Source of the DNA: a virus
Lineage: Duplodnaviria; Caudoviricetes
Length of the DNA stretch: 64,000 nt
Direction: 5' to 3' (one strand)
Virus record (IMG/VR): IMGVR_UViG_3300020576_004352
Span: 23,857 to 87,856 of that record
Shown in pieces: positions 10,936 to 24,131 of this stretch. The notes under the pieces are model-generated. The model worked only from the letters and a program-made list of their open reading frames with translations. It was not told the DNA's origin and did no database searches. Position numbers and translations under genes: made by a program. Every line of letters starts with the position of its first letter. Positions within the stretch are counted from its first letter, which is position 1.

Positions 10936-13637
10936 TGGGCAATAGAGACCTTCAGTTCGTTCTTCGCTTCAAAAGTGAAGCAACAGGGGTTCTGACTGCC
11001 GCTCGGCAAGAGATGCAGAAGCTGGCGCAGCAGGCCGTTGCCGCTAGTGCAGCCCTTCAAAAGCTAAATGCCTCTGCCGGTACCTTCAAATCAAATATTG
11101 CGACTTCAGCCAATGCAGCCTCACAGGCAGCTATGGCACAGCAGAAGCTGGCAAATCAGTCGCAGCGCCTTGCTCTTGATACACAGAAGCTGGCACAGCA
11201 GCAGCAAGCCCTTGTTCTAAACGAGCAGCGCCTTGAGTTGCAGTCGCAGCGGCTTGCTCTAGCTGAAGAGCGTTTGACTAATCAGCGCACGCGCATGGTG
11301 CAGTCAAACCGCAATCTGGCCACGTCTTTCCTCGGCCTCGGCCGATCCATGTTCCCGGTACTGTCCACACTGAGCGCCGGTGTGGTGGTAGGCGGTATCA
11401 TTCAAATGTCAGACACATGGAAGCAGCTCACGGGCCGCTTGCAGATCGTATCAAGCAGCATGGCGGAAGTAACTCTACGCCAAAACCAGCTCTTTGAGAT
11501 TGCGCAGCGCACCGGGCAGCCTCTGGCCAATATCACTGACCTGTACACGCGCTTGAATAACTCCATTGATCCGGCTAAGCGTGCGCAGTATGACTTGCTT
11601 GGCGTAACTGAGACGGTAGCAAAGGCCTTGGCCATTACCGGTGAAGGCTCGGCGCAGGCCGCGAGTGCTATCCTTCAGTTCTCACAGGCCGTAGGCAGCG
11701 ACTTCAAAGCCTCTTCACAGGAAATCAACTCGCTGTTGGATAGCGCCCCGCGTTTGGCGCAGGCTATTCAGCGGTCAATAGGCGACGGCACAAAGAGCTT
11801 GAAGCAGCTTGCGGAGGCAGGCCAGCTTTCGCGCAAGAATGTGCTTGAAGCTCTTTCCTCTATCGGTTCACAGGGGCAGCAGATCGCCCGTGAATTTGAG
11901 AAAATTCCCATGACGGTGGGCCGCGCCTTCACTGAGCTGCGCAATAGCCTGATTAAGTTCATTGGCGAGAATGGCAAGGTGTTGGCAGTTACCAATGCCC
12001 TCGCTTCAGCCATTATCTTTTTGGCGGATAACTTGGATACGATCACGACTGCCATAGCGGCGGTGGCGGCGGTTATCACTGCCCGTCTGGTATCTGCCCT
12101 TGTAGCCAGTGCAGCGGGCTGGATTGCTAATACTGCACAGATTGTTCTTTATCAGATCGCTCTCGGACGCATGGCGGGCTACTCTACCGCAGCGGCCACG
12201 GGGCTTGTCGCTCTAGGGGGTGCCGCTACTATTCTTGGCCGAGCACTTGCTCTAGTCGGCGGGCCTATTGGCCTTGCCGCTTTGCTCGTGGTGGCCTCCT
12301 ATGGTGCTCACGCCAGCCAAGCAGCAGGGAGACAAGCAGCCCTTAACAAGATCGTTGGTGAGTATGCCAGCAAGGCACAGTCTATGACTAATGCCAGCGC
12401 CGCGCAGCGCCGGGCTTTCCTTGAGGATAGTCGCGCCAAGATCAATGCCATGATTGGTGAGGTTAATGCGCTGGCTGGGCTGATCCAAAGCTATGAAGCC
12501 CTTGGCGGTGTTGGAAAGTTTTTCAACAGCCTTGGCCAGCAACTAGGGTTAAGTCCTGACATTATCACAGCAAAAGAGCAGTATATCCAGCTCACGTCCG
12601 CGATTGAGAAGATGATGGCTGTGCGTGAGGGTATCAAGAATAGCTCAGGCGGTGATAACGGCGCTGCTGAGCTTAGCAAGAAGCAGGCGGATACGATCAA
12701 GCAGGTGATTGAGGGCTTGCAGGATGAAAGCATGGCTCTTGACCTGCAAATTAAATACTATGGCCAGAAAGAAGATGCCGTGCGCCGGGCACGCAAAGAG
12801 CAGGAGATTGCCACTGCCTTTATGCGCAATGGTGTTCAATGGACAGCCGCCCTTTCAAAAGAGATTGGTGGTTACCTTGATATGCTGGATTTGCAGCACG
12901 AGCGGTTTAAGAAGCTGGAGGATTTGGCCCATAACGATTTTTGGGCGGGCCTACAGAAAGCTGCAAAAGACATGCAGGAGAACATGAAGGGCGCTGGTGA
13001 CCTTGCTGCGGACGTGTTCAATAAAGGCACTGAGAGCATTTCAAGTGTACTGTCTGACTTTGTTAGCGGCAGCCTGAATAGCTTTGATGACCTTCGCAAA
13101 GGCATTGGTAGTATCTTGACTGATATTGCCGGGCAGATTGCTCAGTTTGTTATCCAGCAGCAGATCATAAAGCCGCTATTGAATAGTATCTTTGGGGCTT
13201 TTGGTGTTTCAACACCCGCGTCAACCGGAAGCGTGACAGTGGCCAATGCTCACGGCAATGCCTTTGCCAATGGCCGAGTGGCCATGTTCGCCAAGGGCGG
13301 TGTAGTTAATCAGGCGACCGCGTTCCCCATGCGTGGCGGTACCGGCGTGATGGGTGAGGCCGGGCCGGAGGCTGTGATGCCTCTGCGTCGTCTCTCCAAT
13401 GGTGACCTTGGGGTGCAGTCTGCCAGTGGCGGGGGCGGAAACACACAGCTCAATTACAGCCCGAACTTCAGCTTTCAGATCGACGGGGGCAACAGACAGG
13501 GTGGCACAGACCGAACCGCCTCTGATGCTCTGTATAAGCAGCTCGACAATGAAGTGCAGAAAACCGTACTCGCGGTGATCCAGCGTGAGCAGCGTCCCGG
13601 TGGTTCTCTGGCTGGTGGCAAAGGGAGGACTGTCTGA
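10935..13637 (+). CDS. Tail tape measure protein
   Basis: DTWKQLTGRL, AILQFSQA, EINSLLDSAPRL N-terminal domain; lambda-type C-terminal FAKGGVV...GEAGPEAVMPL. Confidence 0.92.
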   Translation: MGNRDLQFVLRFKSEATGVLTAARQEMQKLAQQAVAASAALQKLNASAGTFKSNIATSANAASQAAMAQQKLANQSQRLALDTQKLAQQQQALVLNEQRLELQSQRLALAEERLTNQRTRMVQSNRNLATSFLGLGRSMFPVLSTLSAGVVVGGIIQMSDTWKQLTGRLQIVSSSMAEVTLRQNQLFEIAQRTGQPLANITDLYTRLNNSIDPAKRAQYDLLGVTETVAKALAITGEGSAQAASAILQFSQAVGSDFKASSQEINSLLDSAPRLAQAIQRSIGDGTKSLKQLAEAGQLSRKNVLEALSSIGSQGQQIAREFEKIPMTVGRAFTELRNSLIKFIGENGKVLAVTNALASAIIFLADNLDTITTAIAAVAAVITARLVSALVASAAGWIANTAQIVLYQIALGRMAGYSTAAATGLVALGGAATILGRALALVGGPIGLAALLVVASYGAHASQAAGRQAALNKIVGEYASKAQSMTNASAAQRRAFLEDSRAKINAMIGEVNALAGLIQSYEALGGVGKFFNSLGQQLGLSPDIITAKEQYIQLTSAIEKMMAVREGIKNSSGGDNGAAELSKKQADTIKQVIEGLQDESMALDLQIKYYGQKEDAVRRARKEQEIATAFMRNGVQWTAALSKEIGGYLDMLDLQHERFKKLEDLAHNDFWAGLQKAAKDMQENMKGAGDLAADVFNKGTESISSVLSDFVSGSLNSFDDLRKGIGSILTDIAGQIAQFVIQQQIIKPLLNSIFGAFGVSTPASTGSVTVANAHGNAFANGRVAMFAKGGVVNQATAFPMRGGTGVMGEAGPEAVMPLRRLSNGDLGVQSASGGGGNTQLNYSPNFSFQIDGGNRQGGTDRTASDALYKQLDNEVQKTVLAVIQREQRPGGSLAGGKGRTV

Positions 13638-13981
13638 TGGATATTTTACCCGCGTACCCATCCCCCGATACGGGCATTGATCGCACCAGTAAGCCGAACA
13701 TCAAAGAGGTCAAGTACGGGGACGGCTATTCGCAGCGGCTGGCCATTGGTATCAATCAGGCTCCGGTAGCAATCAATCTGTCCTACAGCAATATCAGCAC
13801 CGCAGAAAAGTTGACGCTCGAGAACTTTATAAAAGCGCATTCATCCGGCCAAGCCATTCTCTGGGCAATGCCGGATGAGTACCTGCAACGGAAGTGGTTC
13901 ATAAGCGACTGGACGATAACGTATGTGAAGTACGGCATCTTCAGCGTTAAGATCGGCCTGCAAGAGGTATTTGACGTATGA
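13637..13981 (+). CDS. Distal tail protein (lambda gpM-like)
   Basis: VKYGDGYSQR..GIN motif. Confidence 0.85.
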   Translation: MDILPAYPSPDTGIDRTSKPNIKEVKYGDGYSQRLAIGINQAPVAINLSYSNISTAEKLTLENFIKAHSSGQAILWAMPDEYLQRKWFISDWTITYVKYGIFSVKIGLQEVFDV

Positions 13982-14778
13982 CACTAAACCCAAAGGTGAT
14001 GCAGGAGGCCCTCAAGTTCACGCCTGACAAGGTGGTGACCTTGTTTGACCTTGACCTTACTGAACTCGGAGGCCCTGTATTCCACTTCACCCCTAATATT
14101 TTGTCAGGCGGCGAGCCGGTTTTGAATGAAGACGGCAGCCCGGTTTTAGATGAGAACGGGCACGCGGTATCCACAGAGGGTGAGGGCGTTGAGTTTGTCA
14201 CTTGGCGCGGTAACCCGTATTTCCCTCTGCCGATAGAGGCCAGTGGATTTGAGATGAACAGCAGCGGGCAGCTCCCCCGGCCAAAGCTCACAGTGGCCAA
14301 TGTGCTGAACCTGATTAAGCCGGAGATGATCGCCTACAACAACTTCGTAGGGGCCACGGTCACCCGGTGGCGCACGTTTGCGAAACACCTCGACAGCGGA
14401 AGTGACCCGGACAGTGAGGTCTATTTTCCTCTCGACGTATACAAGGTTGACCGCAAGTCCGGCGAGAACAATGTAATGGTCGAGTTTGAGCTGGCCACGT
14501 CTCTTGACCAAGAGGGTATGCAGCTACCGCGACGCCAGATCATCCGCTCGGCCTGCACACACAGGTATCGGGTCTGGGATGAGGCCACGGGCACTTTTGA
14601 TTATAGCCGTGCCACCTGCCCCTATGTGGGCACCAATTATTTCAACACCAACGGGGAGCCGGTGGGTACACCACAAGAGGACATGCCGTCAAAGCAGGTC
14701 AACACCTGCTGCAAGTTACGCTTCCCCAATCAGGCGCTGCCCACTCGTGCCTTCCCCGGCGTAGGGAGGTTCAGATAA
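13978..14778 (+). CDS. Tail tip protein (lambda gpL-like, Cys cluster for Fe-S)
   Basis: LFDLDLTELGG..FHF, PIEASGFE, PRPKLTVAN, LPRRQI...C..RY...CPY...CC. Confidence 0.9.
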   Translation: MTLNPKVMQEALKFTPDKVVTLFDLDLTELGGPVFHFTPNILSGGEPVLNEDGSPVLDENGHAVSTEGEGVEFVTWRGNPYFPLPIEASGFEMNSSGQLPRPKLTVANVLNLIKPEMIAYNNFVGATVTRWRTFAKHLDSGSDPDSEVYFPLDVYKVDRKSGENNVMVEFELATSLDQEGMQLPRRQIIRSACTHRYRVWDEATGTFDYSRATCPYVGTNYFNTNGEPVGTPQEDMPSKQVNTCCKLRFPNQALPTRAFPGVGRFR

Positions 14779-15500
14779 TGATACCGGTTGAAGTTGCACA
14801 GGCTGCCGTACAGCACGCACTCGCAGAGTATCCGCGTGAGGCGTGTGGTCTTGTGCTGAATAACAACGAGTATGTGCCCATGAGAAACGTGCATGAGCAT
14901 CCGAAGAATAACTTTCGGATGGCTATGGACGCCTTCAAAACACACTATCTCACGGGCAATGTAACTGCACTGATCCACTCGCATACCGGGCCTGATAATC
15001 CGTACCCCTCACAACAGGATATGACCGCACAGCAGAGTATGGGACTGCCTTGGGGCATCATCCATATTAATGAGGTCAAGGACATTGATGGCCCGTTCTT
15101 CTTCGGGGACAGCCTGCCTATAGCGCCCTTCGTGGGTCGCAGTTTCCGCCCGAATGTGCATGACTGCTACACGCTGCTTCGGGATGTTTACCGCCAAGAG
15201 CTGGGGGTAGTTCTTCCCATAGCCCCTCGCGAAGCTGAGTGGTGGCGGAACAAACAGGACTTGCTGAGCCAGAACTTTGCCAAGGCAGGATTTGTGCGGG
15301 TCGACGCCAGCCAGATAATTAAAAACGATGTGATGCTGTGCCGGGTGAACTCGCCACGAGATAATCCTGTCGCAAATCATGTGGTCATTATCAGGGACAA
15401 TGGGTTGGTACTCCACCACCTATCAAACCGACTTTCCCGGCACGACCCTTATATACAATGGCGCAATACCGCGATAAGTTATATTCGGTATAAGGGGTGA
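14778..15500 (+). CDS. Tail assembly protein K (JAB/MPN + NlpC/P60)
   Basis: EYPREACG, IHSHT..NPYPSQQD JAB motif; DCYTLLRD and NHVVI...LHH NlpC motifs. Confidence 0.9.
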   Translation: MIPVEVAQAAVQHALAEYPREACGLVLNNNEYVPMRNVHEHPKNNFRMAMDAFKTHYLTGNVTALIHSHTGPDNPYPSQQDMTAQQSMGLPWGIIHINEVKDIDGPFFFGDSLPIAPFVGRSFRPNVHDCYTLLRDVYRQELGVVLPIAPREAEWWRNKQDLLSQNFAKAGFVRVDASQIIKNDVMLCRVNSPRDNPVANHVVIIRDNGLVLHHLSNRLSRHDPYIQWRNTAISYIRYKG

Positions 15501-15503
15501 ACC

Positions 15504-16154
15504 ATGCGGCAGCTTTTTTTATATGGCGAACTTGCTGAGCAGTACGGCCCGAGCTTCACTGTGCGGGCCAATACTGTTGTGGCCGCTGTGCGGCTCATGG
15601 AAGCGAATTTCAAGGGCAAGTTCATGCGGGGCATCATTGACGGCACCTATAGGGTTGTCGCCGGTAACTCCATTGATGACGAACACGCCATTCACTTTGA
15701 TAACGAGCTGGTGCGCAAAGGATTGAACCTCGGTTCAAAAGACCTCCACATCATTCCGGTTCCCGCAGGATCGGGGGGCAGCTTTCGTATTGTTCTCGGC
15801 ATAGCTCTGATAGCAGCAGCCTTCGCGTTTGCTCCGGCAGCGGTGATGAGTGCAGCAGGTACTGCCAGCACGACTGCCACCTTCGGGGTGGAATTAGGTA
15901 CGGGCTTTCTGTCTTTTCAGACGATGGCCATGTTCGGTGCGTCTCTTGCCCTTGGCGGCATCGCCTCACTGCTCACGCCTGTGGCCAAGGTGGGAGATTA
16001 CTCGAGCCGGGAGACTTCGGACGAGCGAGCCTCCTACCTGTTCAACGGCGCTGTAAACCGGGTTGAGCAGGGCGGGCCAGTGCCCCTTATCTACGGGCGG
16101 ATGCGGACAGGCAGCGTGGTTATATCTGGTGGTATCAAGAATGAGGATATTTAA
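15504..16154 (+). CDS. Tail assembly protein I (N-terminal ubiquitin-like fold)
   Basis: LYGELAEQYG, LHIIPVPAGSGG, SYLFNGAVN...QGGPVPLIYG. Confidence 0.88.
   Translation: MRQLFLYGELAEQYGPSFTVRANTVVAAVRLMEANFKGKFMRGIIDGTYRVVAGNSIDDEHAIHFDNELVRKGLNLGSKDLHIIPVPAGSGGSFRIVLGIALIAAAFAFAPAAVMSAAGTASTTATFGVELGTGFLSFQTMAMFGASLALGGIASLLTPVAKVGDYSSRETSDERASYLFNGAVNRVEQGGPVPLIYGRMRTGSVVISGGIKNEDI
15724..15737. promoter_or_regulatory. Palindromic site TGAACCTCGGTTCA
   Basis: Inside gene I. Confidence 0.6.
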
Positions 16155-16157
16155 GGA

Positions 16158-19100
16158 ATGGATGGATCGTCTAGCCCTATGATACCTCGCCCTCAAGGCT
16201 CCGGTGGTGGCTGCTTCCGGGCGGGCACTCGCGTATCCACACTGGATGGCAGCAAGCCTATCGAGAGCCTGAAGGTAGGCGATCAGGTCTATGCCTATGA
16301 CCAACAGGGGCGGATGCGTACAGGCGAGATTTCTGAAGTCCACCAGCACGAGAATGAAGCCCTGCTGCGCATGGAGTTCTGGGGCGGTGTAATTTTCGTT
16401 ACGCCTAATCACTGGATGCAAAATTCAGCGGGCAGCTTCACTGAGGCGGGCACGCTCACCACACATGATGCGCTGGTAGACATTAGAGGCCACCTGCGCC
16501 CGATCCACAGCATCACCCCTATTGAGCCCGAGACAGTCTATAACCTAACTGTCTTGCCGCACCACACGTTCATCGCGGACGGTATTCGCGTGCATAATGG
16601 AGGCGGCGGTAAAGGCGGGGGAAGCGCCCGCGCTGCGGTAGAGGCCCCGAATACATTACGCTCGAATGCCACGGCCCGTGTGCTTGATCTGATCGGTGAA
16701 GGCCCAATTGGTGGATTGGTGAATGGTGCGCAGTCAATTTTCTTTGACGATACACCTCTCGAAAATGCTGATGGCAGCTACAATTTTAAGGGAGTAGTTT
16801 GGGATATCCGCCACGGGTATCCTGACCAAGACCCCATGTCCGGCTTTGATGAGGTGGAGGCAGAGACTACCGTTGAAACTGCCGTGACCCGTCAGCTCGG
16901 CTCCATTGTGCGGCAGGTGAGCGAGGCGGACGCAGATGCCTGCCGTATCCGTATCCGTATCCCCTCGCTTACTTTGCAGGACACCACTACGGGCGACATG
17001 AAGCCCACGAGTGTGGAGATCAAGATCGAGGTGAAACCCTCCAATGGAGAGTACCGAGATGTGACCTTCGTCTATAACGAGGTGGAGCGCACAGGACAGA
17101 CTACCACAGTCAACAATGCAGTGGGCTTCCGGCTGGTGGTGAAAAAGCGTGTGCTGGTCAAACTTAACAGCCCTTCCTCTGTGACACTGGAGGCTCGCTA
17201 CCGGAAGTCGGGTGCCGCCAGCTGGATCAGTCTGGGTGCCCGCACAGTGAGCGCGATCATTGGCAGCGTGGCCGACATTGCCACGGCTGACGGGTATATT
17301 GATGGGCAGCCTGCCTATTATCACACCTTCACCACAACATACTCGTTGCTTGATCTGGGGGCCAACTCTTATGAGATCGGACTGGTGCAGGGAGACGAGA
17401 TCGTTTCGTTTGTCGCGTATACCCGTAGCAACTTGCTGGTTGAGGGCAAGAATACCGCACCCACTGAAAAGTCATACCGGTTTGACCTTCCCGGAACCGG
17501 CCCGTGGCTGGTACGGCTTAGCCGCATAACGCCTGACAGCGACAGTGCCACCTTACAAAACCAAACCGTATGGGTGTCCTACACCACTATCATTGCTGAC
17601 AAGTTCATCTACCCGGACAGCGCATATATTGGCCTATCTGTTAATGCCTCCCTGTTCGGCAACAGCATTCCCGCCCGCGCATATGACGTATATGGGCGTG
17701 AGGTTCTGGTGCCTCTGAATTATGATCCGTTGCTGCGCATCTATACCGGCTTCTGGGATGGCACGTTCAAGCAGGCGTGGACTGATAACCCAGCATGGTG
17801 CTTTCTCGATATGCTGACCAATGACCGGTTCGGGTTGGGTGATCGTATTGATCTTGATGCAGTCGACACCGCCAAGCTCTATGAGATATCGCAGTACTGT
17901 GATGAGCTGGTGCCGGACGGCTACGGCGGATTTGAACCCCGGTTCACCTTGAACTGTGTGATTAACACACAGGCGGATGCCTACCAAGTATTGAACAGCA
18001 TGGTGTCAAACTTCTGGGGCATGGTCTACCAGTCTGCTGGGGCAGTGGCCTTCGGCATTGACGCCCCTCGTGAGGCGGACGTGATCGTGGGCCGGGCCAA
18101 CGTGGTTGATGGTGAGTTCAATTACTCGAGCTCGGGTGACCGGGCACGGCACAACTCTGTGCTGGTGACATGGAATAACCCCAACGACGGTGACCGTACC
18201 GATATCGAAGTGGTTGAGGATAACGCGGACATTTCTGCCCGTGGTCTGCGCCAGACAGACGTTTACGCCTTCGGATGTAAATCCCGTGGGCAGGCAAGCC
18301 GGTACGGAAAGCGGCTCTTGTACACTGAGAAATATGAGCAGGAGACGGTCACTTATCGCTGCGGCCTTGATCATCTGAATGTGGTGCCGGGCATGGTGAT
18401 TGGTCTTGTCGATCCCAAGGTAGCGGGAGCCGAATTTGCAGGCCGCACACTAGTTGTCGGAGGCAGCCCTATCGCATCTGAAGATGGCGGTGATATTCTG
18501 CTGGAGAATGAAAACCCGCTTCTGATGAACGATCCCACAGTGGTGACACTTGATCGGCCTGTCACTCTGGCAACGGGGCATACCTATGAACTGAATGTGG
18601 TGGACGACACAGGTGCTCTCCAGACCCGTGCTATTACCACCACGTCCGGTCAGACAGTGTCCACCTTGCAGATCAACACAGCCTTCGACCCGCAGCCCAC
18701 AGAGGGCCGCATGTGGAGCATCAGTGGCACGGATGTTGAGCCGCGCCTGTTCCGCATTACGACCATCGTTGAGGTTGAGGGTTATATGTTTGAGGTGACC
18801 GGCGTAGAGTATAACCCGGCAAAGCATGATTATATTGATCGTGACTTCAAGCTGAGCCCGGTCAATTTCAGTCGCCTGTTCTCGGGTAAGGTGCTCCCTC
18901 CCGAGAACCTTGATATTGTAGAGACGTTATTCAAAACCAACGGCGTGCTGCGCACCCGCGTAAATGTGGGCTGGAGCACGCCAACTGATACCCGAGTGAC
19001 CATATTCCGGGTACAGTACGGCCTCAGTAATGGTGGGCTCTCGCGGGAGCTGCTGACACGAGATACCTCTGTTGAGCTGGACGATCTTGAGCCGGGAACC

Positions 19101-20654
19101 TATGACTTCTATGTGTCTTCAATCGCTGCTGCGGGCGAGAGCGAGGCGGTGAGCAGTGAAGCACATGTGATCCTTGGTAAGACTGCCCCGCCCGGTGATG
19201 TTGGCAATCTGCGTGCTGATCGTCGCGTGAATGGCGTCATGCTACAGTGGGATACAGTGCCCGATCTTGATCTGGTTGGTTATGAAGTCAGGCAGGGAAC
19301 CAACTGGGACACCTCCATATACGTGGGCGACGTGACCGGCACCACCATGTATATCGCGCTTGATAACAGCGCAGAGATCACTTTTCTTGTGCGGGCAAAA
19401 GACCAGCTCAACATCCTGTCACAGAACGTGAGCACGATAACCACCTCGGTTATATCTCCCACCTGCCCGCCTGTATTCACAGCCGTGGCGCAGGCTGACT
19501 ATGTGCTATTCCGGTGGACGCGCACAGACGGGCTGGATAACAAGTATGAAATTCGCCGGGGCACAAGCTGGTCGTCGTCGGAGCTTATCGCAGAGAGTTC
19601 GAGCGATGAACTGCTTGTGTTAGACCCTCAGCGGGATGCATCCTATTATTGGATACGTGCCAAATCAACGGCAGGGCTCTATAGCGGAGATGCCCGCGTG
19701 GCGATGGCGCAGCGTGCTTTGATCCAAGACCGCAATGTTATCCTTGAGTATGACAATCAGAATGATGGCGGGGCAGGCCTCTATCCCGGCTACACCTTTG
19801 ATATGGAACAAGGGCTTGACGATACCCTGCTGATCTCGAATGGGAGCACGGATCATATTCTGCTGGAGAATGGCACAGACGAGATCAGCCTTGAAAGTAC
19901 CGATCCGGTTTTGCTGGAGGGCACTCGTGCAGTTATGTATGGTGAGCATTACTTCACGGTTGATCTTGGTCAGACCCTGCGGGCTCGTAACTGGCTCGAG
20001 ACAACTCCTGTAAATGTCGTTGGGGGCGGGCTGACATGGGAGGAGTGGCTTGCGTCGTGGGAAGCCCCTGAAAGTCAGATTACGTGGCTGCCCTTGGGCG
20101 ACCTGTCAACAGTGCAGCTGCAAAAGGTGATCGCTTGGAAGAGGGCTCCTCTGACTGAGGAAGCATACGCTTTCACGATGAACAGCACGCTGGTTGATGT
20201 GCGAGGAGTTACCCCCGGAGAAAGTGTGAAAGTCACGTATGGCCCCGCCAAGTTTGAGCAGGGTCTGGTGATTAATGACCTGACGAAGGTGTCCTATACG
20301 GTAACTCTGGGCAGCTCTTTCAGTCTCATGTTTAAGTTTCGCCTCCGGGAAATATTGAACGGCAAGCGTATTTTTACAGTGCTCAAGAACAACACCAATG
20401 GTGAGCGACTGGAGATCGGATACGATGAGGCCTATGGATCACTTTACTATATGGATAACACAGGCAACACTCTGGACTTGCCTATTGCGGTACAGGACAA
20501 CGATGACTTTATCTTTATCGGTTTTGTGCAGGCGGACAGTTCGCGGATGCTTTACTATAAATCCGAAAAACTATATACAGAGGGTAGTGCCGCTGCCAGT
20601 CACGCCCCGATGGCACACACGTTTGACCGCCTATACCTCTATGACCGGGCATAA
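16158..20654 (+). CDS. Central tail fibre / tip attachment protein J with N-terminal Hint domain, FN3 repeats and C-terminal LamG-like domain
   Basis: VLDLIGEGPIGGL, WTDNPAWCFLD, YCDELVPDG...EPRF, GC.SRGQA.R; FN3-like repeats; Hint at residues 19-147. Confidence 0.92.
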   Translation: MDGSSSPMIPRPQGSGGGCFRAGTRVSTLDGSKPIESLKVGDQVYAYDQQGRMRTGEISEVHQHENEALLRMEFWGGVIFVTPNHWMQNSAGSFTEAGTLTTHDALVDIRGHLRPIHSITPIEPETVYNLTVLPHHTFIADGIRVHNGGGGKGGGSARAAVEAPNTLRSNATARVLDLIGEGPIGGLVNGAQSIFFDDTPLENADGSYNFKGVVWDIRHGYPDQDPMSGFDEVEAETTVETAVTRQLGSIVRQVSEADADACRIRIRIPSLTLQDTTTGDMKPTSVEIKIEVKPSNGEYRDVTFVYNEVERTGQTTTVNNAVGFRLVVKKRVLVKLNSPSSVTLEARYRKSGAASWISLGARTVSAIIGSVADIATADGYIDGQPAYYHTFTTTYSLLDLGANSYEIGLVQGDEIVSFVAYTRSNLLVEGKNTAPTEKSYRFDLPGTGPWLVRLSRITPDSDSATLQNQTVWVSYTTIIADKFIYPDSAYIGLSVNASLFGNSIPARAYDVYGREVLVPLNYDPLLRIYTGFWDGTFKQAWTDNPAWCFLDMLTNDRFGLGDRIDLDAVDTAKLYEISQYCDELVPDGYGGFEPRFTLNCVINTQADAYQVLNSMVSNFWGMVYQSAGAVAFGIDAPREADVIVGRANVVDGEFNYSSSGDRARHNSVLVTWNNPNDGDRTDIEVVEDNADISARGLRQTDVYAFGCKSRGQASRYGKRLLYTEKYEQETVTYRCGLDHLNVVPGMVIGLVDPKVAGAEFAGRTLVVGGSPIASEDGGDILLENENPLLMNDPTVVTLDRPVTLATGHTYELNVVDDTGALQTRAITTTSGQTVSTLQINTAFDPQPTEGRMWSISGTDVEPRLFRITTIVEVEGYMFEVTGVEYNPAKHDYIDRDFKLSPVNFSRLFSGKVLPPENLDIVETLFKTNGVLRTRVNVGWSTPTDTRVTIFRVQYGLSNGGLSRELLTRDTSVELDDLEPGTYDFYVSSIAAAGESEAVSSEAHVILGKTAPPGDVGNLRADRRVNGVMLQWDTVPDLDLVGYEVRQGTNWDTSIYVGDVTGTTMYIALDNSAEITFLVRAKDQLNILSQNVSTITTSVISPTCPPVFTAVAQADYVLFRWTRTDGLDNKYEIRRGTSWSSSELIAESSSDELLVLDPQRDASYYWIRAKSTAGLYSGDARVAMAQRALIQDRNVILEYDNQNDGGAGLYPGYTFDMEQGLDDTLLISNGSTDHILLENGTDEISLESTDPVLLEGTRAVMYGEHYFTVDLGQTLRARNWLETTPVNVVGGGLTWEEWLASWEAPESQITWLPLGDLSTVQLQKVIAWKRAPLTEEAYAFTMNSTLVDVRGVTPGESVKVTYGPAKFEQGLVINDLTKVSYTVTLGSSFSLMFKFRLREILNGKRIFTVLKNNTNGERLEIGYDEAYGSLYYMDNTGNTLDLPIAVQDNDDFIFIGFVQADSSRMLYYKSEKLYTEGSAAASHAPMAHTFDRLYLYDRA
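16212..16598 (+). other. 129-aa endonuclease-free Hint (intein-like) domain with +1 Gly
   Basis: CFRAGTRV start, VTPNH block B, VYNLTVLPHHTFIADGIRVHN end, followed by GGGGKGGG. Confidence 0.9.
17933..17946. promoter_or_regulatory. Palindromic site TGAACCCCGGTTCA
   Basis: Inside gene J. Confidence 0.6.
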
Positions 20655-21854: not shown

Positions 21855-23222
21855 TTGCAGGACTACCCAGATATCGTAGCAACAGACAGCGTTGGGGGCA
21901 GCCGAGTAAATCTGCTCGCCCGCGATAACGCGCTTAAATCCTGTTTTGCAGGAACGGCTTACCCCACCTCTGGCCTCTTACAGGGCATGGTGTGCTATCG
22001 CAGTGACCTGAATAAATTATATGTCCTCGAACAGGTCAGCCCGGCCATATGGCGTGAGATCATTTTATCCTCTGCGATTGGTACGGCTGCTCCGAAGAAC
22101 ATAGGAACTTCGGGTGACACCATTCCAAAGAACGACACGGCCAATACGTTCTCAGAACGCCAGACCTTAGCGGGCGGAGGTGCCCTTGGCACCCAGAGTA
22201 TCACAGGCAGCTCTGGGTACTTCAAGATGGACACCGAGGTACGTCTGGACGCCAACAGCACAAAGAAGATCAACTTCCTGATTAACAGCACGAGTGCCAT
22301 GTCGGTGGAAAGTAATCGCGGCATAGTGGTGGGCTCGGCCACGGGGGGCAGCAAGGGCGCAGGCACTTTGAATGCTGTGGGTCTCTACAACGGGGGCAAT
22401 CAGATTAAGACAGCTGCCTATAAGGACGCTGGAACTTCCGGCGACACCGTCCCGACATGGAATGACCTCGGAGATGGTGCAGCTTATGATATCGCATCTC
22501 AGGCCGAGGCCGAGGCGGGGACTGTCACCAACAAGGCGATGACACCTCAACGTACTGCGCAGGCTATCGCGGCCCTTGCTACCGGTAACAGTGGCAGGTG
22601 GATTAAAACCACAGTGCTCACGAGTAGCGGAAATTTTGTAAAAGACGGAGCTGCCAACACTGTCCATGTTCGTCTGGTTGGTGGAGGTGGAGGTGGCGGG
22701 GCATCAGGGCAGACGGGCTCCAATTATTTAGCGGGTGGTGGTGGTGGCGCGGGGGGCTATTCTGAAAAGTATATCAGTGCGGCAGCCTTGTCGGGCAGTG
22801 AAACCGTCACGATTGGGGCAGGAGGAAGCGGAGGTGCTGGTGGATCAGGATCAGCAGGTGCAGCAGGTGGAACTACCTCATTTGGGGCCCACCTGAGTGC
22901 CACAGGAGGGGCCGGAGGCGCTAAGGGCACTGCAAATGGCACCGTGGGGGGGATTGGTGGGCTAGGGTCAGGCGGGCAAATCAATGTCAGAGGCGAGGCA
23001 GGTAAATCCGCGATTGAAGTCTCAACTCAATATGCCTTATCCGGGAATGGGGCCTCCACCAGATTTGGAGCAGGGGCTCTTGGAGTAGTAGACAGCTCTG
23101 TTGGTAATGCTGCTGCGGCCAATAGTGGTGCAGGCGGCTCAGGAGGCTCTTCAGGAACCACTTCTTCTTATAACGGAGGAGCAGGTGGCTCAGGTATTGT
23201 TATAGTGGAAGAATATGCATAA
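21855..23222 (+). CDS. Tail fibre protein with Gly-rich C-terminal domain (TTG start)
   Basis: ASQAEAEAGTVTNKAMTPQRTAQAI fibre motif, two [GK]TAA...GTSGDT.P repeats, GGGGGGG-rich C-terminus. Confidence 0.75.
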   Translation: MQDYPDIVATDSVGGSRVNLLARDNALKSCFAGTAYPTSGLLQGMVCYRSDLNKLYVLEQVSPAIWREIILSSAIGTAAPKNIGTSGDTIPKNDTANTFSERQTLAGGGALGTQSITGSSGYFKMDTEVRLDANSTKKINFLINSTSAMSVESNRGIVVGSATGGSKGAGTLNAVGLYNGGNQIKTAAYKDAGTSGDTVPTWNDLGDGAAYDIASQAEAEAGTVTNKAMTPQRTAQAIAALATGNSGRWIKTTVLTSSGNFVKDGAANTVHVRLVGGGGGGGASGQTGSNYLAGGGGGAGGYSEKYISAAALSGSETVTIGAGGSGGAGGSGSAGAAGGTTSFGAHLSATGGAGGAKGTANGTVGGIGGLGSGGQINVRGEAGKSAIEVSTQYALSGNGASTRFGAGALGVVDSSVGNAAAANSGAGGSGGSSGTTSSYNGGAGGSGIVIVEEYA

Positions 23223-23685: not shown

Positions 23686-24131
23686 TGTTCACAAAACCAA
23701 AGCGCCCGGTCAGCCGGGTATTCATTCACTGCTCTGCCTCGGACGCGCTTGGCCCTGCATACAAAGGCGTGGAGCTGGTAAAGACCATAGACAGCTGGCA
23801 CAGGGCACGAGGCTTCAACGATATTGGGTATCACTATGTGATCGACAAGGCCGGTACTCTCATGATCGGGCGCGGTTTAGAGAGAGCCCCTGCTGCACAG
23901 GAAGGGCACAACTCCGGCACCATTGCTATCTGCGTGCATGGCCTTGATGTTTCGAGGTTTACGGTGGAGGCCCTTACAAGCCTTTTGTCCCTGTGCAAAG
24001 AAATCAATACCGCGTATAATGGCAGCATCACCTTTCACGGCCACAGAGAGGTTGCACCTAAGACGTGCCCCGTATTCCCGTATGACAAAGTTCTTGGGTT
24101 AGATAAGTTTGGTAGGATGCCTTTAAAATGA
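23685..24131 (+). CDS. Endolysin, N-acetylmuramoyl-L-alanine amidase (T7 lysozyme / Amidase_2 type)
   Basis: FIHCSA, WHRARGFNDIGYHYVID, GHNSGTIAIC, HGHREV.PKTCP. Confidence 0.93.
   Translation: MFTKPKRPVSRVFIHCSASDALGPAYKGVELVKTIDSWHRARGFNDIGYHYVIDKAGTLMIGRGLERAPAAQEGHNSGTIAICVHGLDVSRFTVEALTSLLSLCKEINTAYNGSITFHGHREVAPKTCPVFPYDKVLGLDKFGRMPLK

Follow-up and report, generated by a model that had tools for sequence, protein, structure and literature searches.

A bacterial intein-like Hint domain in the glycine-rich N-terminus of a phage tail fibre protein J, a probable self-excising passenger of tail-tip proteins

What does an intein-like domain do at the N-terminus of a phage tail fibre? The question is raised by a 64,000-nucleotide stretch (the window; positions 23,857 to 87,856) of the 87.9-kb uncultured-virus record IMGVR_UViG_3300020576_004352 (Duplodnaviria; Caudoviricetes), in which J, a lambda-J-like central tail fibre protein, carries a Hint domain close to its N-terminus (Table 1). 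An earlier note, made from the letters of the window, had described an endonuclease-free mini-Hint with a non-nucleophilic Gly at +1 in the poly-Gly N-terminus of J, and Pfam, the predicted fold, and the translation all agree with this description. We consider it likely that this domain excises itself from the Gly-rich N-terminus of J after translation, and that it is a mobile or passenger cassette of Gly tracts with no regulatory task specific to J.

Judging from sequence and predicted fold, the J Hint is a type-A bacterial intein-like (BIL) domain of the PT-HINT family. PT-HINT (PF07591, gathering cut-off 27.7 bits) matched with 33.0 bits in whole J and with 38.0 bits in its N-terminal 181 residues (E 8e-8 to 2e-9), and Hint_2, Hint, and Intein_splicing of Pfam also matched, more weakly. 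The top phmmer match among PDB sequences was 2lwy, a bacterial intein-like domain (E 1.7e-9). The AlphaFold2 model, computed from a 54-sequence alignment, has a predicted local distance difference test (pLDDT) score of 93-98 across residues 20-148, with residues 154-187 disordered, and shows the horseshoe-like all-beta fold of the HINT superfamily. The best Foldseek match was again 2lwy [E 2e-12, template modelling (TM) score 0.87, root-mean-square deviation 1.5 Å], followed by BIL2 of the Tetrahymena BUBL1 locus (6y75, 6tmm), and then by mini-inteins and Hedgehog Hint; there were 66 PDB matches at E ≤ 0.001, and the top-ranked ones listed were all BIL, intein, or Hedgehog Hint domains. No inserted domain was found in the 129 residues or in the model, and the Hint thus has no endonuclease. 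No second Hint was found in the whole phage record. The residues to be expected at the active site are Cys19 (16212-16214), the TPNH motif of block B at residues 82-85 (16401-16412), His146-Asn147 (16593-16598), and Gly148 at +1 (16599-16601). The span 16212-16625 given earlier for the domain located both the Hint and the Gly/Lys tract correctly, but the Hint proper ends at 16598, and the remainder is the nine-residue tract.

A homologue search with J residues 1-230 returned more than a thousand J-type proteins, and the Hint was present in nearly all of the best 120 matches. Hundreds of related phages have the cassette at this type of site. G18, C19, F20, T82, H85, W86, H146, N147, G148, and G149 were invariant in 54 diverged homologues that were aligned, while the surface around the catalytic residues varied. 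The -1 residue was Gly in all 124 Hint units of the J homologues, behind leaders of 8-27 residues; the +1 residue was Gly in 118 of them, each time as Gly-Gly, and block B read TPNH in 96. The features of type-A BIL domains, namely an N-terminal Cys, Thr..His in block B, and a terminal His-Asn followed by a residue other than Cys, Ser, or Thr, are thus all found. Ser or Cys at +1, for which a survey of homologues had been proposed, was never seen, and the +1 Gly is by this comparison ancestral and no recent mutation. The identity between Hints tracks that between J bodies (Spearman 0.75 over Hint-bearing pairs), and whichever identity band is taken, the Hint has diverged less than the J hub (e.g., 51% identity where the bodies share 35-45%). 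The pattern of conservation indicates that the Hint is an old resident under purifying selection. A recent horizontal arrival in this genome was rejected on account of a guanine-plus-cytosine content equal to that of the flanks, and is also countered by the identity of the Hint to its nearest relatives, which does not exceed that of the body. In 96 of 110 Hint-bearing J proteins, the linker after the Hint repeats the leader motif ahead of the native Gly/Lys tract, as if a unit of leader and Hint had been duplicated and had left a scar.

The N-termini of Hint-less J proteins consist of Met, a few residues, a hydrophobic-x-Gly pattern, and a Gly run with one Lys, a form common to cultured phages and metagenomes. 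The Hint-less protein P0254 and the Hint-bearing P0004 share 74% body identity, and ...GSGG-AKKSSGSS of the former aligns exactly with ...GSGGGGG[Hint]GGGGKKSSGSS of the latter, indicating that the Hint is a precise insertion in a native Gly tract and that a spliced product would resemble a normal J. Precise insertion with Hint-free alleles, as known for inteins, is likewise seen when P0254 is compared with P0006, and in other Hint-less J proteins. On a FastTree phylogeny of 214 J bodies, 110 of them with the Hint, its distribution requires at least 12 changes between presence and absence. In a 40-row likelihood tree, P0254 lies within a well-supported clade of seven Hint-bearing proteins [98 in the Shimodaira-Hasegawa-like approximate likelihood ratio test (SH-aLRT)], and the well-supported branches alone force at least 4 such changes. 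Four J proteins carry two tandem Hints, and the two copies were mutually closest relatives in the Hint tree where tested. In a collection of viral contigs, ~11 of the 80 best loci had a Hint, ~7 of these in J and 4 in gpI. No Hint-bearing J was found among the cultured phages of a 50,697-record collection, where the other Hint matches lie in helicase-annotated or hypothetical genes. The tblastn match to Escherichia phage PHB10, the only cultured-phage record with 82% query cover, was spurious: its J begins MAIATAIKGRKGG, without a Hint, and what matched upstream is a meaningless out-of-frame alignment over gene I.

The Hint of J has close relatives in other tail proteins. In loci L021, L026, L030, and L037, it is found in gpI/TAPI instead of J (L021:2138-3460, L037:2147-3451), and there occupies the Gly linker right after the ubiquitin-like N-domain, ahead of the hydrophobic helices and the TAPI-C domain. 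The flanks are as in J, with a Gly run before the Cys and GGGGK after the HN. On either side of the Hint, these gpI proteins have matches to phrog_32, and the AlphaFold2 model of one of them starts with an alpha/beta domain, which a disordered Gly linker separates from a confidently predicted Hint. There are ~28 clusters of Hint-bearing gpI proteins (P0361-P0387), and their Hint-less sisters of 291-299 residues (P0388-P0392) have the exact empty site. In P0193, P0205, P0212, P0184, and P0172, the Hint caps the C-terminus, with Ser at -1 and a GGKGK-type tail of ~13 residues. No function was found by Pfam and PHROGs for the other host proteins of the clade. A tree of 84 Hints placed the Hints of J, gpI, and other phage tail proteins together in one supported clade, in which the gpI copies fall at two places, one of them among the J copies; this clade is separate from, and sister to, the Hints that occur in tandem in Tim44-like proteins secreted by bacteria. 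The secreted bacterial proteins, only some of which are Tim44-like, have 2-7 tandem Hints with HN-K-G-G-G-C linkers between them; the series starts directly after the signal peptide, and a Gly/Ser/His-rich tail comes after it (P0123-P0127, P0133, P0134, P0153, and others). In L009, two genes downstream of a J with a Hint, a fibre-like gene (L009:8858-10020) extends into a second Hint, whose start follows a Cys/Asn/Thr-rich stretch where the locus ends; Hints can thus occur on two tail proteins of a single phage.

The placement of the Hint at the ubiquitin-type Gly tails of the tail-tip module is the unexpected part. Following the domain reading of Iyer et al. (2006, PMC1779556), the gpI of the window consists of a ubiquitin-like N-domain ending in IIPVPAGSGG, hydrophobic helices, and a TAPI-C domain. 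The JAB domain of gpK was predicted to cut gpI at the last Gly of the ubiquitin-like domain (Iyer et al., PMC1779556), and the gpI Hint occupies exactly this predicted site. In lambda gpI, the Gly-Gly of the ubiquitin-like domain is at about residues 100-101; in one structure of the tip, gpI is resolved only from about residue 101 onwards (PMC11101478), and virions were reported without gpK (PMC10721106). A Hint that replaces the gpK JAB was considered and rejected, as JAB was kept in every Hint-bearing locus examined, including L021 and L037, the two loci with a gpI Hint that were examined, where gpK retains both JAB and NlpC/P60. The J leader resembles the N-termini of Hint-less J proteins and also the gpI tail, its ...IPRPQGSGGG mirroring ...IPVPAGSGG. 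More generally, J N-termini and gpI tails share the pattern hydrophobic-x-Gly-[Ser/Ala]-[Lys/Gly]-Gly-Gly (window 15751-16211; L003-L009, L017-L086), and a rough hand count, which ignores kinship, suggests that they co-vary in the presence of Lys. The shared pattern would fit one recogniser, e.g., the gpK JAB. Gene conversion was considered as a recent source of the likeness between gpI tail and J leader and was rejected, the DNA of the two motifs in the window being identical at 17 of 30 bases.

How, then, would the Hint leave J? It retains the full set of residues for an N-S acyl shift at Gly18-Cys19 and for the cyclisation of Asn147, and from these conserved residues and the known behaviour of BIL domains we infer the following steps. 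Cys19, aided by Thr82 and His85, would convert the Gly18-Cys19 bond to a thioester. Asn147, aided by His146, would then cyclise and break the Asn147-Gly148 bond. Because the +1 residue is Gly, no transesterification is possible, and either water or an amine would have to resolve the thioester; the simplest candidate is the freed alpha-amine of Gly148. Upon hydrolysis, the leader would be lost and J would begin with GGGGK, ~three glycines longer than lambda J by alignment. Attack by the amine would amount to splicing without a side-chain nucleophile and would restore the N-terminus of a Hint-less J. BIL domains lack a +1 nucleophile, and cleavage at the N- and C-terminal junctions accounts for most of their products and splicing for some (PMC7664689, PMC7765530); the laboratory that solved 2lwy reported that a single mutation makes them efficient splicers (PMC7664689; also PMC7765530). 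From this precedent, we expect the J Hint to excise itself with cleavage dominant and some ligation. The earlier note also considered a covalent link between J and another protein; as the thioester bears the 18-residue leader and not J, such a link is unlikely on chemical grounds.

There are arguments for either outcome. In favour of ligation, C-cleavage would by itself be enough to release J, and yet the N-terminal catalytic residues do not vary; moreover, no pairing is less hindered than that of a Gly thioester with a Gly amine. Cleavage, on the other hand, would give a lambda-like product, and in most homologues the native motif is duplicated after the Hint; furthermore, a cut at the gpI site has been predicted in any case, and at the C-terminal caps the C-exteins are tiny. 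The GGGGKGGGS tract of J corresponds to the first residues of lambda J (MGKGSSKG, read from NC_001416), so that cleavage alone would also yield a normal-looking N-terminus. Residues 1-807 of lambda J are ordered in the tip, that is, from residue 1 (PMC12617516), and three 14-kDa domains could therefore probably not stay there.

As to its history, the cassette would be a long resident of tail-tip Gly tracts that has nevertheless remained mobile among the J N-terminus, the gpI linker after the ubiquitin-like domain, and fibre C-termini, and that has persisted because a precursor that failed to lose its Hint would be unfit. We favour such a mobile passenger because of the empty-site alleles, the patchy distribution, the tandem copies, and the several host proteins. 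Several points weigh against it. Processing across the Hint family is deduced from sequence and from the analogy with BIL domains, and cleavage and ligation are indistinguishable in silico. If C-cleavage sufficed, some other cause would have to be found for the constancy of Cys19, Thr82, and His85: the two steps may be coupled, or ligation may really be needed. The Hint is without an endonuclease, and its mobility is read from its distribution, for which sampling was biased in that Hint-bearing proteins were gathered by Hint similarity. In addition, co-divergence with J is equally expected of a useful, vertically inherited domain.

The earlier note proposed a domesticated processing switch rather than a selfish intein. 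On this reading, the Hint would be kept because a timed self-cleavage gates the J N-terminus for tip assembly or because a free oligo-Gly N-terminus must be created. Self-cleavage or ligation by an amine is reasonable chemistry, and this part of the proposal is supported by the conserved Gly at +1. The strong conservation of the catalytic residues and flanks, the conservation of the Hint above that of the J hub together with its mostly parallel divergence, the lack of an endonuclease, and the sheer size of the family, with 110 Hint-bearing J homologues in the 214-protein tree, are all consistent with a switch. However, the domestication is unsupported because of the empty sites, the 12 or more changes on the tree, the tandem copies, and the copies in gpI and other hosts. 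Close relatives do without the Hint and have a precise empty site, most J proteins of the viral-contig collection are Hint-less (~7 of the 80 loci kept have a Hint in J), lambda obtains the same kind of N-terminus without any Hint, and the tandem copies and other host proteins fit a passenger better. We therefore regard a domesticated switch as rather unlikely.

A bolder proposal takes the ubiquitin-like tails at face value. As in the ciliate BUBL, the thioester formed by the Hint at a ubiquitin-type Gly tail (the J leader here, the whole ubiquitin-like domain in gpI elsewhere) would be attacked by the epsilon-amine of a nearby Lys, that of GGGGK, to give an isopeptide branch, in a cycle free of E1 and with the gpK JAB as deconjugase. 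BIL2 of the Tetrahymena BUBL1 locus, the second-best structural match, was reported to form a Lys-epsilon isopeptide and thereby to conjugate a ubiquitin-like domain without ATP (PMC8616854). The position of the Hint directly after the gpI ubiquitin-like domain in the four loci mentioned, the gpK JAB retained in the two that were checked, the likeness of the J leader to the gpI tail, and the Lys within five residues past the junction in the J of the window and in gpI all point the same way. However, Lys within 8 residues of the junction is no universal feature, being found in just 21 of 110 J Hints; Hint-less gpI and J proteins bear the same Gly/Lys tracts, so that the Lys is not specific to the Hint; and the likeness of leader and tail is one of protein only, as the base count given above indicates. 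Such conjugation is, in our opinion, quite improbable. It is scarcely credible that an inactive Hint is retained in the virion as an additional domain at the N-terminus of J: degenerate Hint domains do occur elsewhere, and the activity is so far predicted from sequence, but the catalytic residues have been kept while the surface varied, and the tip, in which lambda J is ordered from its first residue, has little room.

Several known systems resemble the J Hint. With Clostridium thermocellum BIL4 (2lwy), it shares the fold, the best sequence match, the N-terminal Cys, TxxH, and the C-terminal His-Asn, and, like type-A BIL domains in general, it is without a +1 Cys/Ser/Thr and without an endonuclease and has Asn for the usual intein Asp in the VY[ND]L motif of block F. 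It differs from them in that its host is a phage virion protein rather than a secreted bacterial protein or toxin, that it is 18 residues from the N-terminus with a short leader as N-extein, that its flanks are invariant (Gly at -1, Gly-Gly at +1/+2), and that it has precise empty-site alleles, as inteins do. The class 1 mini-inteins (Ssp DnaB, Npu DnaB, and gp41-1) share the HINT fold (Foldseek E 1e-9 to 1e-10), Cys1, TxxH, HN, and the precise insertion with presence and absence among related genes; unlike them, the J Hint has Gly148 where Cys, Ser, or Thr is needed, its place of insertion is a disordered Gly tract where theirs is a conserved active site, and it has no homing endonuclease. 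The ciliate BUBL (BIL2, 6y75/6tmm) is alike in the gpI of related phages, with a ubiquitin-like domain directly before the Hint (L021, L026, L030, L037, P0361-P0387), and in the J leader of the window, which resembles the Gly tail of such a domain; in contrast, only the 18-residue leader precedes the Hint of the window, the sequence identity is 22-23%, and the isopeptide is hypothetical in the phage Hint. The Hedgehog Hog domain has a sterol-recognition region behind its Hint and no C-terminal Asn cleavage, whereas the J Hint has a terminal His-Asn with the J body behind it. The C-terminal Hint caps (P0193, P0205, P0212) are of the same clade and have the same order of Gly run, Hint, and GG..K, but their polarity is the reverse of that in J, with the fibre as N-extein and a tiny C-extein.

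The purpose of bacterial intein-like domains has been open since 2003. The phage Hint family is a clean natural test system, consisting of one clade with invariant Gly flanks at three tail-tip positions (J N-terminus, gpI linker past the ubiquitin-like domain, and fibre C-termini), each with Hint-free sisters as controls. It could reveal whether nucleophile-free splicing via a Gly amine occurs in nature, whether a Hint substitutes for the proteolytic maturation of virion proteins, and whether the thioester activation of a ubiquitin-like domain without E1 occurs outside ciliates. A mini-Hint that ligates Gly to Gly would be a useful part for protein engineering. If the BUBL-like reading were true, these phages would encode a minimal ubiquitin-like conjugation cycle, the prokaryotic-virus counterpart of the ciliate BUBL, which might bear on the host Bil systems, in which a ubiquitin-like protein is conjugated to the central tail fibre (bioRxiv 10.1101/2023.09.04.556158). 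We found no paper that describes a Hint in J, gpI, or phage tail tips in full-text searches.

The J gene is the last of a lambda-type tail-tip module (genes 13637-20654) with the order gpM-like, gpL, gpK, gpI, and J (Table 1). The first two matched Phage_min_tail and Phage_tail_L, respectively, and the translation of gpK shows the JAMM-type motif H-S-H...S..D. J has the hub domains of lambda J/TipJ downstream of the M-L-K-I genes (FNIII-A_GpJ 4.7e-31, Phage-tail_3 5e-15, lambda_TipJ 1.5e-124), and the conserved J motif PNTLRS comes after its Gly/Lys tract.

Table 1. Positions in the window of the J gene, its parts, and the two genes upstream.
Feature	Position	Strand	Evidence
gpK-like tail assembly protein, JAB/MPN metallopeptidase + NlpC/P60	14778..15500	+	Pfam Prok-JAB 5e-12, NLPC_P60 7e-6
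gpI/TAPI-like tail assembly protein	15504..16154	+	phrog_32 tail assembly protein 2e-44; translation
J open reading frame, 1498 residues, stop-free	16158-20654	+	Translation
J leader (N-extein), 18 residues, ends ...IPRPQGSGGG	16158..16211	+	Translation
Hint domain, 129 residues, type-A BIL / PT-HINT (by sequence and predicted fold)	16212..16598	+	Pfam, phmmer, alignment, AlphaFold2, Foldseek
C-flank Gly/Lys tract GGGGKGGGS, Gly148 = +1	16599..16625	+	G148, G149 invariant
J body, lambda-J-like central tail fibre / tip attachment protein	16626..20654	+	FNIII-A_GpJ, Phage-tail_3, fn3, lambda_TipJ

The gpI and J genes share a reading frame, with only TAA and one Gly codon between them (window 16152-16160). 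I-J fusion proteins occur naturally (P0259, P0291), and the same-frame spacing is inconsistent in relatives, being seen in L008 and not in L007 or L009. L008 also has a free-standing GIY-YIG endonuclease gene (L008:7229-7876) three genes downstream of its Hint-bearing J. Downstream of J in the window, beyond two open reading frames with no Pfam match, lies the gene of a 455-residue protein with a Gly_rich_2 domain (21855-23222; PF21722, 1e-9).

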